Below the pieces are notes generated by a model, which saw only the letters and a program-made list of their open reading frames with translations, was not told the origin of the DNA and made no database searches. A program made the position numbers and the translations under genes. Below are positions 3,110 to 47,855 of a stretch of 64,000 nt of DNA, one piece after another. This stretch comes from an uncultured Nitrospiraceae bacterium. GTDB taxonomy: Bacteria > Hydrogenedentota > Hydrogenedentia > Hydrogenedentales > SLHB01. The stretch lies in contig CAZPMT010000010.1 in NCBI GenBank assembly GCA_964587655.1, positions 16,506 to 80,505 of the forward strand. Reading direction: 5' to 3'. Numbering within the stretch: position 1 is the first letter of the stretch; each line of letters opens with the position of its first letter.

Positions 3110-5190
3110 GGAGCACAGTTCTGCGAGCCGCTATGACTGCGGCGCTGGTTGGCGCGATCTGTATGCCCGCGTACGGCGCTCCGCGCAAGCACGTCATTGT
3201 CGACGGCAATCGGGCCCGCACCGTCCACACAATCCCGCTCTACGACGAGAACTATAAAGAGGTCCGTCCCGACGACGATATGCCGATGCCGTTCTCGACG
3301 CGGAACACCTGCGGCGACTGCCACGACTACGAGAAGATCGGCATGGGCTGGCACTTCAACGCGTCCCAGAACATCACCGATCCGGGGCGTCCGGGCGAGC
3401 CGTGGGTGCTCGTCGATGAGAGCGCGGGCGTGCAGCTTCCTCTTTCGTACCGAGGCTGGCCCGGGACTTGGAAACCGCAAGACCTCGGCATGACCGAATG
3501 GGACTTCGTGAAGACGTTCGGACATCACATGCCCGGCGGTGACATGGGGGAAAGGGAAGAGGAAGTCCCAAACCCGAACGCGCGGTGGAACGTTTCAGGA
3601 AAGGTCGAGATCAATTGTCTCGCCTGTCATAACGTATGCGCCGACCAAAATCAGAGCGAATGGGCCATTCAAATCGCGAGAGAGAATTTCCGATGGGCCG
3701 CAACCGCCGCCAGTTCGCTGGGCATCGTGCTAAACATGGCCTCCCGCCTCCCGGAGTATTACGACCTAATCGATGGGCCCAACAAGGACAATCAATGGGC
3801 CGCGGTCCCGGAGGTCAAGTACCAGTCATCGCGTTTCAACGAGAAGAACAAGATCTTCTTCGACGTAAACCGGAATGCCCCGAACAACCGGTGCTACTAC
3901 TGCCATTCGAGCGTTCCCAAGAACGTGGACACGGAGAAGGTCTGGGCGTGGGACGGCGACGTACATCTTCTGGCGGGGCTGACGTGCACCGACTGCCACC
4001 GCAACGGCCTTGACCACTTCATCTCCCGCGGATATGAGGGTGAGCGCGCGGACCCTTCGTACAGCACGCTTACCTGCCGCGGATGCCATCTCGGCGATCC
4101 GTCCGGCCGGGGTTTCGAGTTTAGAGGCGGGCGCATGACCGCTCCGCGGCCCCTGCACCGCGGGCTGCCGCCGGTGCACCTCGAGAAAATGACCTGCACG
4201 GCCTGTCACTCCGGATTTCTTCCGGGCGATAAGACCGAGCGGATCCGGACCGCCCGCGCAAACCGTCTCGGCATTCATGGACGCGCCCAGTGGGATACGG
4301 AACTTCCGTACATCCTCGCGCCGGTCTTCGTGCGGCAGGGCGACGGCAAGATCGAGCCGCACGAGATCATGTGGCCGGCGTTCTGGGGAAGCATGAAGGG
4401 CGGCAAGGTCACGCCGTTGTCTCTCGATGTTGTTTCGCCGATCGTGACGGCCATGCGCGACGCAGAGAAAGAGGCGCAGCTCGATATCGAACGCCAGAAA
4501 CAGGAGGCGAGCGCACCGCCGCAGGCCGAGGCAAGATCAGGCGAAGGTGAGGGTGAAGGCGAAGTTGAAGGTGAGGGTGAAGGTGAAGGCGAAAGCGAAG
4601 GTGAAGGCGAGGGCGAAGGCGAGGGCGAAGGCGAAGGGGAGGCCAATGAACAGGAACCCGCCGCGCCTGAGGTCATTATCGAGGAGATCCCGCCGCTCAC
4701 GGAACATCAGGTGGCCAAGGTCCTGACGGAACTAGCCGCCACAGTTGGGCCGGAGGCGCAGCCCGTCTACGTCGCCGGCGGCAAGTTGTACAAAGCCGCG
4801 TCCGGCGGCGCCGGGCTGGCTTCCGTGGACCATGACGCGGCGAAGCCGTACTCGTGGGCCTTCGCGCACGACGTTCGCCCAGCGTCGCAATCGCTGGGCG
4901 CGCGCGGTTGCACCGACTGTCACGATGAGGACTCGAACTTCTTCTTCGGCGAGGTCGAGCACGCGGCGCCGACGCCGCTGGGAACGCCCGTGTCGACGCC
5001 GATGTACGCGATGACCCAACTCGATCCGAAGCTCTTGACGGCGCTTGACGCGGAGGTCGAACTGCGCACGCCGCTTATTGTGGGCGCGATCGTCTTGATA
5101 ATCCTCCTTGGCGTGGCGCTCCTTCACTATGGGTTCATCGGGCTTGAGAGTTTCTTGAGACTTCTCGTCGCCCCCGGCGGCAAGAAGTAG
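3106..5190 (+). CDS. Membrane-anchored multiheme cytochrome c (7 CxxCH motifs)
   Basis: GTG start overlaps the upstream stop (GTGA), with AGGAG 8 nt upstream. Signal peptide MRSTVLRAAMTAALVGAICMPAYGA. CxxCH motifs: CGDCH, CLACH, CYYCH, CTDCH, CRGCH, CTACH, CTDCH. C-terminal hydrophobic helix LIVGAIVLIILLGVALL. Confidence 0.85.
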   Translation: MRSTVLRAAMTAALVGAICMPAYGAPRKHVIVDGNRARTVHTIPLYDENYKEVRPDDDMPMPFSTRNTCGDCHDYEKIGMGWHFNASQNITDPGRPGEPWVLVDESAGVQLPLSYRGWPGTWKPQDLGMTEWDFVKTFGHHMPGGDMGEREEEVPNPNARWNVSGKVEINCLACHNVCADQNQSEWAIQIARENFRWAATAASSLGIVLNMASRLPEYYDLIDGPNKDNQWAAVPEVKYQSSRFNEKNKIFFDVNRNAPNNRCYYCHSSVPKNVDTEKVWAWDGDVHLLAGLTCTDCHRNGLDHFISRGYEGERADPSYSTLTCRGCHLGDPSGRGFEFRGGRMTAPRPLHRGLPPVHLEKMTCTACHSGFLPGDKTERIRTARANRLGIHGRAQWDTELPYILAPVFVRQGDGKIEPHEIMWPAFWGSMKGGKVTPLSLDVVSPIVTAMRDAEKEAQLDIERQKQEASAPPQAEARSGEGEGEGEVEGEGEGEGESEGEGEGEGEGEGEGEANEQEPAAPEVIIEEIPPLTEHQVAKVLTELAATVGPEAQPVYVAGGKLYKAASGGAGLASVDHDAAKPYSWAFAHDVRPASQSLGARGCTDCHDEDSNFFFGEVEHAAPTPLGTPVSTPMYAMTQLDPKLLTALDAEVELRTPLIVGAIVLIILLGVALLHYGFIGLESFLRLLVAPGGKK
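4541..4643 (+). repeat. In-frame GGYGAR hexanucleotide tandem repeat encoding (Gly-Glu)n, about 17 units
   Basis: GGCGAAGGTGAGGGTGAAGGC... encodes SGEGEGEGEVEGEGEGEGESEGEGEGEGEGEGEGEA inside the cytochrome c, between the heme-rich domain and the C-terminal region. Confidence 0.9.
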
Positions 5191-6931: not shown

Positions 6932-8632
6932 ATGATTGACTTGACCCGAGAGAGCACACTGCGCGTCCTGGCGGCCGTTCTGGTTCTGACGGTCGCCGTT
7001 GGCGCATTCGTTTTCCGCGCGCCGCGCCTAGATCTCCGCCCAATGCACACCGATGAAGCCGTGCACACCATCAAGGCGGGCATGCTCCTCGAAAAAGGCG
7101 TCTACACTTACGATCCCAACGATTACCACGGCCCGACAATCTACTACGCGGCCCTGCCCTTCATATGGGCCGGTGGCGCCCGAACCCTCGCCGAGACTTC
7201 CGAATGGCAGTTCCGCATTGTGCCGGTCGTGTTCGGCGTGGGCCTGGTGCTTCTCCTCCTGCTCGTCATCGACGGACTCGGCGCGTGGGAAACCGTTTTC
7301 GCCGCCATCCTTACCGCCGTCTCTCCCGCGATGGTCTTCTACAGCCGCTATTACATCCAAGAGATCCCCTTTGTCTTCTTCACCTTCTTCGCTATCGCGG
7401 CGGGTTGGCGATACAGCCGATCTCCGCGAATCGGCTGGGCGCTCCTTTGCGGCGCGAGCCTCGGCCTCATGTTGGCCACAAAGGAGACCAGCATCCTGTC
7501 CTACGCGGCCATGTTGTGCGCCCTGCCGCTCACGCTCATCTGGACGCGATGGCGCGGCGGCGCCAACGCTCGCATTCGGGACTTCCTTCACCCATGCCAC
7601 ATTGCCGCCGCGTTCGTTCTCGGTTTGTGCGCATGCATCACCCTCGTTTCAGGCTTCTTCTCAAACCCGCGCGGCGCCATCGACATATTCTTGACCTTTC
7701 TCAGCTACTTCCATCGCGCGGGCGGAGTCGGGATTCACGATCACCCCTGGGACTACTACTTCCGAATCCTGTTAGGGCTTGACAATCTTCCGGGGCCTCA
7801 GTGGAACGAAAAGCTGATTGTAGTCATGGCAATTGTCGGCGTCCTCGTCGCCTTGCTGAGCAAGCGCAATCCCGCATCAAGTCCCCCTTTGAAGGGGGAT
7901 TCAGGGGGATGTTCTGATGGCGTCTCAACGCAACCCGTTGCGACAACACATCCCCCTGAATCCCCCTTCAAAGGGGGACTTGCTCCAAACGCAGCTCCAC
8001 GCCTTCTGCGTAACCCAAGCCTCATCCGCTTCGTCGCCCTCTACACCCTCTTCCTCGCCGCGGCATACTGCGTAATCCCATACAAGACCCCCTGGTGCAT
8101 GCTCGGATTCCTCCACGGAATGATCCTTCTCGCGGGCGTGGGGTTTGCCGGACTTGTGCGTCTCGTACGGCACAACGGGCTGCGGGTGATTCTCGTTCTT
8201 GCCGTGGCATTCGCCGCGTTTCGTCTCGCGGATCTCGCCTACCAGGCGAGTTTCAAGTTCTACGCCGACACGCGCAACCCCTACGTCTACGGACATACCT
8301 CGACCGACATGTTGCGGCTCGTCAAGCGAATCGATGACATAGCGCGCCTTTCCCCGGACGGGCGGAACACGCTCATCAAGGTCGTCGCCCCGGACCCTTG
8401 GCCGCTGCCGTGGTACCTCCGGGCGTACACAAAGGTCGGGTATTGGCCCAACGCAGCGGATGACGTCGATGCCCCCATTGTTATCACATCGCAGGAACTC
8501 CAATCGGAAATCGAGAGCCGCCTGCGCGACACGTACCAGAGCGAATTCTACGGACAGCGTCCGGAAGTCCTCATGACCGTCTTCATCAGGAAGGACCTGT
8601 GGGACGCCTTCATCAAAACCCGGACAAGCTGA
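6932..8632 (+). CDS. GT39/PMT_2-like (TIGR03663-type) polytopic membrane glycosyltransferase-family protein, carrying an in-frame MITE insertion
   Basis: ATG 6932 with AGGA upstream. Many TM helices. Conserved regions HTDEAVH, YDPNDYHGP, DPWPLPWYLR. Residues encoded at 7876-7982 (SSPPLKGDSGGC...ESPFKGGL) derive from the MITE. Confidence 0.65.
   Translation: MIDLTRESTLRVLAAVLVLTVAVGAFVFRAPRLDLRPMHTDEAVHTIKAGMLLEKGVYTYDPNDYHGPTIYYAALPFIWAGGARTLAETSEWQFRIVPVVFGVGLVLLLLLVIDGLGAWETVFAAILTAVSPAMVFYSRYYIQEIPFVFFTFFAIAAGWRYSRSPRIGWALLCGASLGLMLATKETSILSYAAMLCALPLTLIWTRWRGGANARIRDFLHPCHIAAAFVLGLCACITLVSGFFSNPRGAIDIFLTFLSYFHRAGGVGIHDHPWDYYFRILLGLDNLPGPQWNEKLIVVMAIVGVLVALLSKRNPASSPPLKGDSGGCSDGVSTQPVATTHPPESPFKGGLAPNAAPRLLRNPSLIRFVALYTLFLAAAYCVIPYKTPWCMLGFLHGMILLAGVGFAGLVRLVRHNGLRVILVLAVAFAAFRLADLAYQASFKFYADTRNPYVYGHTSTDMLRLVKRIDDIARLSPDGRNTLIKVVAPDPWPLPWYLRAYTKVGYWPNAADDVDAPIVITSQELQSEIESRLRDTYQSEFYGQRPEVLMTVFIRKDLWDAFIKTRTS
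7876..7982. mobile_element. Foldback MITE copy 2 (same 36-bp TIRs), inserted in frame in the GT39-like CDS
   Basis: CAAGTCCCCCTTTGAAGGGGGATTCAGGGGGATGTT ... AACACATCCCCCTGAATCCCCCTTCAAAGGGGGACTTG. The arms differ from copy 1 at one position each, with the change compensatory between arms. Confidence 0.75.
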
Positions 8633-20356: not shown

Positions 20357-20368
20357 CGAATTCAGTAA

Positions 20369-20461
20369 GGGCGGTTTTTCCAAAACCGCCCCACAGTTGC
20401 TGCAGCCGCGCGCGCGGACGTTTGTGGTGTTGGGTGGGGACGGTTTTGGAAAAACCGCCCC
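20369..20461. terminator. Pair of inverted GC-rich/T-tract hairpins (GGGCGGTTTTTCCAAAACCGCCC and GGGGACGGTTTTGGAAAAACCGCCCC)
   Basis: First hairpin has a 10-bp perfect stem. The second is an imperfect inverted copy 45 nt downstream. Located between the stop at 20356 and the next ATG at 20495. Confidence 0.4.
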
Positions 20462-20494
20462 TACTTTGCATGTACGTTTTGAGAAGGATACGCG

Positions 20495-43946: not shown

Positions 43947-47365
<3,419 letters not shown>

Positions 47366-47510
47366 CTATCGGCAGGGTATATTGGCAGAGAAGAATCGAA
47401 ACAGCACTGGAGACATGCGACTCGGCGCGCCGCACGGGAAATGACATTCAAGACCACCCGGAGAACGGGTGGAATGAGGAAGGCCCCATAAAGGGGCCAG
47501 GCACTTTTTT

Positions 47511-47640
47511 CGTGCTCGTGCTCGTGCTCGTGCTCGTAATCGTAATCGAAGACACGAATGATCAGAGTCATACAGCAGAGATCAGCGGATATTTCATTTG
47601 CTCGATTACGATTACGATTACGAGCACGAGCACGAGCACG
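47511..47640. repeat. Palindromic hexanucleotide repeat array: (CGTGCT)4(CGTAAT)2 - 52-bp centre - (ATTACG)3(AGCACG)3
   Basis: The two 36-39-bp arms are near reverse complements and could form a long hairpin or cruciform. Intergenic, between ligA and the hydrolase gene. Confidence 0.8.
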
Positions 47641-47855
47641 AAAGCTGCGCTGGAACGGCAGAGCCTTATGAGTTCTCACCGGCAAAGCCGGTGGATCAGC
47701 TTTGATTCAGCTTGAAGTCCGCGAGGCGATGTATCTACCATGCCCGTTGTGCCGGATATGACGTTACGTGAGACGCGCTGACAGCATAGATTGAGATTGC
47801 ACAGGGCCTTCTGAGATGCTAGCATGCCCGTGTTGACGTGGGAGAGAAAGGTCAA

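Follow-up and report, generated by a model that had tools for sequence, protein, structure and literature searches.

A palindrome of hexamer arrays between ligA and an esterase gene of Candidatus Hydrogenedentota is probably the foldback core of a recently inserted mobile element

REP, BOX, and Correia repeats are normally lineage-specific. The palindromic elements of Rickettsia are selfish in-frame insertions in genes, and in the foldback and subterminal-repeat transposons of eukaryotes, such as Drosophila FB and Ac/Ds with its AAACGG hexamers, the short repeats are bound by the transposase of the element itself. REPINs are REP doublets that form hairpins and are moved by RAYT transposases (PMC3116915). 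By comparison with these systems, the palindrome described here appears to belong to an element that is MITE-like in behaviour and REPIN-like in its singlet and doublet-hairpin organisation, with a cross-phylum compound hexamer array as its apparent hallmark.

The palindrome was found in a window of 64 kb (the whole stretch of DNA that was analysed), where it occupies part of a 784-bp spacer separating ligA from a divergently transcribed gene for a dienelactone-hydrolase-type esterase. Nearly all of the closest named relatives of ligA belong to Candidatus Hydrogenedentes/Hydrogenedentota and share about 64-67% identity with it. The flanking genes and the parts of the palindrome are as follows.

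45032-47071, minus strand: ligA, NAD-dependent DNA ligase, a flanking gene with transcription directed away from the element
47508-47549, no strand assigned: left arm, TT (TCGTGC)4 (TCGTAA)2 TCGA
47550-47604, no strand assigned: unique centre or loop, with partial complementarity persisting in the ~15 nt at either edge
47605-47643, no strand assigned: right arm, TCGA (TTACGA)3 (GCACGA)3 AA
47856-48824, plus strand: dienelactone-hydrolase-type esterase gene, a flanking gene with transcription directed away from the element

The palindromic hexamer arrays of the original prediction were recovered at the same positions by both tandem- and inverted-repeat calls, and its unit counts (4+2 versus 3+3) were correct. 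The tandem calls comprised (TCGTGC)4.7 + (TCGTAA)2.5 on the left (47510-47548) and (CGATTA)3.5 + (ACGAGC)3.7 on the right (47603-47641), with units that are 100% pure in both arms. The palindrome is perfect across 33 nt (47516-47548 and 47609-47641, separated by 60 nt) and extends to arms of 56 nt with 86% complementarity (47508-47563 and 47588-47643) around an unpaired centre of 24 nt. The gap between the hexamer blocks measures about 58-60 nt instead of the 52 bp first proposed, and the palindrome-to-ATG distance is 213 nt, in agreement with the predicted ~215 bp upstream of the esterase gene; the ligA ATG is about 440 nt away. Neither the rest of the 64-kb window nor the fetched related loci contain a match to the centre (47550-47604). 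Searching the window with a 15-mer of the repeat unit and allowing at most two mismatches returned eight matches, seven of them within the element, where 0.4 are expected in the whole window, and the palindromic hexamer arrays are far above chance expectation. Because the arm counts are unequal, one unit per side is left unpaired. Folding of a 381-nt region as RNA resulted in z = -10.8 and -10.6 on the two strands, with a stem of ~40 bp predicted on either strand, and folding of the 264-nt element as DNA resulted in -81.8 kcal/mol (z = -12.9).

Coding, CRISPR, and structured-RNA readings of the arrays were examined. On one strand the arrays translate as DY/EH, RL/RA, or IT/ST, and five of the six frames are open. 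A search for the DY/EH motif returned only 16 orphan ORFs of 32-86 amino acids, which lack Pfam domains and have unrelated flanks. Arrays hold no constant frame with respect to the genes downstream, and in some of them a conserved insert varies by a 1-nt indel from genome to genome; a coding repeat was rejected, as had been predicted. The prediction that the arrays are not CRISPR-like was likewise borne out, as a CRISPR array requires repeats of at least 20 bp with unique spacers of similar length and the units here are 6 bp and contiguous. The ORFs of the element are short or repeat-driven only (the longest being 118-120 amino acids), and protein look-ups of the longest pair and of the peptide motifs found none on record as a real protein. 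Rfam 15 gave no match in the window, the best score on the element (E = 0.26) being far below threshold, and no match covering any array in 18 related loci.

To establish the history of the spacer, metagenome contigs with orthologous esterase genes were compared with the window. In one of these (L120), which is 94.6% identical to the window at the nucleotide level over 3,677 nt on the esterase side, the spacer aligns base for base apart from exactly 259 bp that are missing. The filled site of the window reads ...GGGAAATGAC-ATTCA-(AGACCACCC ... GGATCAGCTTTG-ATTCA)-GCTTGAAG, with the inserted block in parentheses, and the empty site of L120 reads ...GGGAAATGAC-ATTCA-GCTTGAAG. Five more orthologous spacers (L121, L122, L123, L159, and L161) are uninterrupted at the insertion point of the window. 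Since all six are empty there, the empty state is ancestral and the window represents a recent gain; the palindrome is not native to the ligA-esterase spacer. The inserted block, its parts, and the repeats that bound it are as follows.

47446-47450, no strand assigned: left direct repeat ATTCA, 5 bp, the target site and present as a single copy in the empty allele (L120 alignment)
47451-47709 (equivalently 47446-47704), no strand assigned: inserted block of 259 bp, missing from the spacers of L120, L121, L122, L123, L159, and L161
47454-47472, no strand assigned: left outer hairpin CCACCCG-GAGAA-CGGGTGG
47482-47510, plus strand: small hairpin GGCCCC-ATAAA-GGGGCC, then a 6-nt gap and TTTTTT; not called as a terminator
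47677-47693, no strand assigned: right outer hairpin CACCGG-CAAAG-CCGGTG, 74% identical to the left outer hairpin as a direct repeat
47705-47709, no strand assigned: right direct repeat ATTCA (L120 alignment)

As in MITEs, the inserted element is small and non-coding (259 bp) and shows insertion polymorphism with an intact empty site. The palindrome does directly follow the T-run of a previously proposed sRNA candidate, but that T-run and its hairpin are themselves part of the 259-bp insertion. The indel boundaries lie ~60 nt outside the arms, and the arrays were rejected as the termini of a mobile unit in the window. At the actual ends only gapped similarity was found (AGACCACCCGG versus the reverse complement AAGCTGATCCACCGG), which amounts to weak terminal inverted repeats (TIRs), and the 5 bp of ATTCA at both ends could also be microhomology. 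The similar outer hairpins are situated 3 nt and 16 nt inside the ends, with ATTCA preceding the left end and closing the right end; this subterminal-hairpin and ATTCA combination, which may recall palindrome-associated elements derived from IS200/IS605, is not shared by the sister element described below, and no tnpA or tnpB was seen. No further copy of the 259-bp element, or of either outer hairpin, is present in the window or the fetched loci.

Two Logan contigs from independent assemblies (L001 and L002, from SRR13723394 and SRR13723397) carry the esterase gene with identical sequence, and both start at window position 47667, inside the element and 24 nt past the right arm. This break indicates that both samples hold the filled allele and that the assembly graph is tangled there, and the element may help account for two assemblies breaking beside the palindrome. 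Exact-protein look-ups returned no contig that spans the palindrome, only these two short contigs starting at 47667.

Alignment of the orthologous spacers also revealed a conserved block next to the esterase ATG, downstream of the insertion. Among orthologous loci with 82-95% identical esterases, the conserved blocks are 47320-47445 and 47710-47855, and they include a direct repeat, CTACCATGCCCG.../CTAGCATGCCCG... (47735-47754 and 47819-47838). By our own reading, with no tool call, a putative proximal promoter (TTGCAC-17-TAGCAT) precedes the esterase gene, and TTGA..-19-TATATT is located further upstream in the conserved blocks; these blocks are candidates for a promoter or leader of the esterase gene or of the sRNA proposed earlier. 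If the proximal promoter is indeed TTGCAC-17-TAGCAT, neither gene need be disturbed by the element. The same spacer holds a REPIN-like palindrome at 47182-47275 with 29-nt arms (GCGTCATTCCCGCGAAGGCGGAAATCCAG and CTGGATTCCCGCCTTCGCGGGAATGACGC) that are 36 nt apart; the L120 sequence is different and shorter at this position, making this a second polymorphic palindromic insertion in one spacer. Other long intergenic palindromes of similar design occur at 1554-1679, 7878-7982, and 20364-20465 (arms of 29-47 nt, spacers of 32-44 nt), and two of these three have a common arm, CAAGTCCCCCTTTGAAGGGGGATT.AGGGGGATGT. The source genome carries several REPIN-like families. A second hexamer repeat in the window, (AGGCGA/AGGTGA) x16.5 at 4539-4637, encodes a Gly-Glu repeat in one frame, appears to extend the flanking reading frame, and is unrelated to the palindrome.

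A like palindrome was found in a sister lineage, the esterase of which shares about 83% identity with that of the window. Two contigs of this lineage, L123 and L159, carry an independent insertion of ~310 bp in the same spacer but at a different position, near ligA, with the palindrome at its centre, and L121, L122, and L161 (96-98% identical to each other or to L123) provide the empty site. The empty site reads CCCGGCCGAGTCGTC, and L159 has copies CCCGGACGAGTCGTC and CCCGGCTGAGTCGTC of these 15 bp around the insertion, a convincing target-site duplication that in both L123 and L159 flanks plausible imperfect TIRs, as read from the sequences. The window and sister insertions share nothing beyond the arrays and about 9 nt adjoining them. 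Unit numbers differ between the sister alleles in both arms: L123 has (TCGTGC)4(TCGTAA)3 on the left and (TTACGA)2 followed by ~6 GCACGA-like units on the right, and L159 has (TCGTGC)2(TCGTAA)2 on the left and (TTACGA)7 GCACGA TTACGA (GCACGA)3 on the right, so that the arms within one allele can reach 4 versus 12 units. A change in unit number between alleles, the check proposed with the original prediction and the expected outcome of slippage, is thus seen for the sister copy. As the arms vary independently between alleles, a perfect hairpin is not being maintained. Palindrome-bearing blocks have been inserted recently and repeatedly, and their unit number changes rapidly and independently in each arm.

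Related arrays were collected with an exact 22-mer spanning the junction of the two unit types (GTGCTCGTGCTCGTAATCGTAA), searched on both strands of 596 Gb; this one exact 22-mer defines the sample. More than 117 stretches were found where about 0.07 are expected by chance, so that the genome search for other arrays of the same units, which had been suggested with the original prediction, found them in large numbers. The carriers are at least 42 species-representative assemblies labelled as at least 11 phyla, a count that may be inflated by mis-binning of metagenome-assembled genomes (MAGs). Among the matches listed, the labels were Planctomycetota (11 assemblies), Verrucomicrobiota (5), Sumerlaeota, Riflebacteria, Acidobacteriota, and Desulfobacterota (3 each), Hydrogenedentota and Bacillota (2 each), Bacteroidota, Victivallales, and Nitrospiraceae (1 each), and unclassified bacteria (7); Lentisphaerota and Nitrospirota are among the 11 phyla in whose intergenic DNA the array recurs. 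One carrier is a closed isolate chromosome (CP050848, Planctomycetales bacterium ZRK34) and two are chromosome-level MAGs, closed chromosomes with arrays come from Planctomycetota, Desulfobacterota, and Verrucomicrobiota, and the GC content of the array loci listed ranges from 42 to 68%. The low-GC loci and closed chromosomes indicate that the cross-phylum spread is real despite possible mis-binning. A single MAG (JAJFUE01) contains more than 40 array loci. A phage origin was rejected, the 22-mer being present in only 2 of 2.9 million viral contigs. Sequence-string and keyword searches found no description of these arrays in the papers searched, and the cross-phylum repeat family is apparently undescribed.

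Among the 121-124 arrays listed, the TCGTGC block (n = 2-7) always precedes the TCGTAA block (m = 2-8), usually with a TCGA end. An inverted partner lies within 350 nt of 34 of 124 arrays, making up about 17 pairs, and the other 90 (73%) are solo. The partner is downstream of the forward array in 30 of the 34 cases, which places the GC-rich units outward and the AT-rich units toward the loop, matching the arrangement in the window; loop sequences are unrelated and about 12 to 110 nt long. Nearly all arrays listed are intergenic, and the four arrangements of flanking genes are about equally frequent (23, 19, 16, and 16), as expected for insertion at the DNA level. A gene boundary is within 45 nt of the TCGTGC end in 72 of 124 arrays and of the other end in 30 of 124, the GC-rich end is often 0-25 nt from a start codon, and arrays follow the stop codon of a same-strand gene in 32 cases and precede the start codon of an opposite-strand gene in 40; these distance and orientation statistics are approximate, as the gene calls at the related loci are home-made and unreliable at high GC (shadow ORFs). 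In one instance orthologous znuB-like genes, 84% identical in amino acids and 80% in nucleotides, have retained an array immediately upstream even though the spacer around it cannot be aligned. Direct repeats of at least 10 bp showed no general excess around arrays (31/124 versus 151/591 controls), no transposase or multi-copy gene was present among 1,971 ORFs near arrays, and no long DNA repeats were found between array loci. A variant unit with an insert, TC-AGCGAAGCG-GTGC, is common to arrays at four loci (L011, L015, L028, and L112) labelled Bacteroidota, Bacillota, and Planctomycetaceae, a second cross-phylum signature inside the arrays; in Thermoguttaceae the right-arm form is CCGCT(A)TCGCTGA.

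In two lineages the arrays ride on classical MITEs with unrelated ends. A Planctomycetaceae MAG has three ~197-bp copies of one MITE with a perfect 13-bp TIR (GGCTCTGTAGAAA), the hexamer palindrome in mid-element, and 9-bp target duplications (GGTCACCCG, GGTCGGGAG, and an imperfect third). The other family, from Sumerlaeia and JAJFUE01, consists of 130-190-bp elements with a ~20-25-bp TIR (TAGAGCGCTTGACAAAAGTT), TA at both flanks, and a single array immediately inside the left TIR that varies among copies (n = 2-7, m = 1-7). Elsewhere, a 12-bp direct repeat surrounds a degenerate palindrome (L131), and the two copies of an exact 36-bp duplication enclose an array (L055). At L118 (~4829-4871) the array is in frame within a membrane glycosyltransferase-like ORF and adds DYDYDYEHEHEHEHE between two hydrophobic segments, the only convincing copy in a coding region among the matches listed. 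Tandem repeats of an array and an identical 38-nt hairpin spacer were observed in L075 (minus strand, 7858-7990), and an "inside-out" pair with GC-rich units by the loop is repeated three times in L057 (880-2510), where a Thermoguttaceae chromosome is very rich in repeats. A Planctomycetaceae contig with an array MITE also encodes, at a non-adjacent position, an Acido-Lenti-1 RNA (L022, 3668-3713; Rfam RF01687, 50.4 bits).

The array elements resemble MITEs such as the Correia elements of Neisseria in being small (130-310 bp), non-coding, and intergenic, in their presence/absence polymorphism among close relatives, their target duplications, and the long hairpin formed by the whole element, and in the clear TIRs of two array-bearing families, one of them TA-flanked. 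In contrast to MITEs, their conserved part is an internal compound microsatellite and not the termini, this one module spans unrelated TIRs, duplications of 2, 5, 9, and 15 bp, and many phyla, and the window copy has only weak TIRs and is single in the window and fetched loci. Like REPINs, the arrays occur as singlets and inverted doublets with a non-conserved spacer, have hairpins predicted in ssDNA and mRNA, and are scattered extragenically (PMC3116915); the window additionally holds classical REPIN-like palindromes. However, a REP is itself a small palindrome whereas the hexamer array is not self-complementary, array singlets outnumber doublets (about 90 versus 17 pairs) whereas most REP classes are mainly doublets, and REP families are lineage-specific whereas the hexamer arrays are identical across phyla. 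Membership in the REP/REPIN class was rejected on the non-palindromic unit and on the predominance of solo arrays (90, with 34/124 paired). Inverted arms of short tandem repeats that differ in number between copies and ends, and hexamer motifs inside rather than at the termini, recall the eukaryotic foldback elements, but the hexamer arrays occur with several unrelated termini and none of the 1,971 nearby ORFs is a transposase. Simple sequence repeats of contingency loci share the short tandem units and slippage-driven number change (L123 versus L159), but the array does not sit in any particular gene's promoter spacer or reading frame and is a compound of two units in fixed order, present in tens of copies per genome and borne on insertions. 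The in-frame array of L118, which reads DYDYDYEHEHEHEHE, is reminiscent of the Rickettsia palindromic elements; it is, however, a single case, nearly all arrays being intergenic with no domain-bearing proteins containing the motif.

Taken together, we consider the palindrome to be, with reasonable probability, the foldback core of a 259-bp non-coding, non-autonomous mobile element that recently inserted into the ligA-esterase spacer of Candidatus Hydrogenedentota, where it is most likely a tolerated passenger between divergent genes and not a built-in regulator. Such an element would be mobilised in trans by a transposase that the window does not encode. Its arrays would grow and shrink by replication slippage, which would give both the 4+2 versus 3+3 asymmetry and the purity of arrays whose flanks diverge, and they may be all that can still be recognised of an old element lineage that spread horizontally. 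The arms would pair in ssDNA or RNA as a stem of ~40 bp, and alleles with very unequal arms suggest that this pairing is not under strong selection. A recombination hotspot, one of the roles first proposed for the palindrome, is compatible with the data. The single copy in the window and fetched loci, the weak TIRs, and the failure to find a transposase near any array speak against a mobile element, and because the direct repeats vary (2, 5, 9, 12, and 15 bp) no single transposition chemistry fits. The 5-bp repeat could alternatively be microhomology of a templated insertion, and, if the hairpin provoked template switching or microhomology-mediated repair, copying of the 259-bp block from elsewhere would account for the variable direct repeats (5 to 15 bp, with 12 bp in L131) and for the unrelated outer parts of the window and L123 elements; the copies of a 36-bp exact duplication that flank the L055 array also fit such copying. 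It is nevertheless improbable, as two array-bearing families have clear TIRs with fixed-length target duplications and the 15-bp duplication in L123/L159 adjoins plausible imperfect TIRs. The leading idea of the original prediction, a phase-variable contingency repeat that tunes esterase or ligA expression through spacer length, gains from the different unit numbers of the sister-insertion alleles, but no sigma-70 promoter-like site was called around the palindrome, the relatives lack the whole element, the ATG codons are 213 nt and about 440 nt away, the conserved esterase-proximal block with its possible promoter (our own reading) is downstream of the insertion, and arrays elsewhere have no fixed relation to promoters; we regard it as extremely unlikely. 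A terminator or RNase III-type processing hairpin that insulates the divergent genes is also very unlikely: the ~40-bp RNA stem is predicted on both strands, but it is followed by AAAGCU on the plus strand and AAAAAAG on the minus strand, and hence by no U-tract on either, terminator calls at the big hairpin returned zero sites, divergent genes leave no read-through to stop, and the solo arrays that make up 73% of the family are unable to form the hairpin. The earlier suggestion of a complex terminator was abandoned on these grounds.

A purely selfish mobile element leaves unexplained the several types of termini and duplication lengths, the cross-phylum identity of the hexamers, the polarity of the GC-rich end to gene boundaries, and the retention of the array at the znuB-like genes. 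Identical arrays in elements with unrelated ends from at least 11 named phyla, together with the znuB-like retention, hint at a selected function. The hexamer array might then be a selected cis-acting module, either a protein-binding platform or an outward promoter with an unstructured leader, that is ferried by mobile elements, and the inverted pair in the window would be a bidirectional cassette facing ligA and the esterase gene. Consistent with this, the hexamers are identical across genomes of 42-68% GC, the arrays are common to elements with different ends and different target duplications, the GC-rich end is the one near gene boundaries (72/124 versus 30/124, although from crude gene calls), the array is retained upstream of znuB-like orthologues with unalignable flanks, and the GC-rich ends in the window point to both divergent genes. 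We nonetheless consider this rather unlikely, as same-strand stop codons and opposite-strand start codons are about equally represented (32 versus 40), the four flanking-gene arrangements are about equal, promoter calling returned no site, the element is absent from close relatives, one allele has arms of 4 versus 12 units, and turnover by slippage alone suffices for array purity. A broader version, in which the compound array (TCGTGC)n(TCGTAA)m is an unrecognised, selected cross-phylum module repeatedly captured by or colonising unrelated mobile elements, or is the hallmark of new mobile DNA with variable-length target duplications, is similarly doubtful. Such a selected module could serve as tandem binding sites for a conserved protein that recognises DNA or RNA, or act as a portable leader or regulatory element.

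Against the lineage-specificity of REP, BOX, and Correia repeats, a single exact compound hexamer array has been found across at least 11 labelled phyla, in genomes of any GC content and on differently ended mobile elements. The arrays could find practical use as a hypervariable strain-typing marker. If they are only junk maintained by slippage, then a microsatellite can outlive the rest of its transposon family and would mark horizontal transfer between phyla. If they are selected, a conserved partner that binds them, or a portable regulatory element, would be expected in poorly studied phyla.
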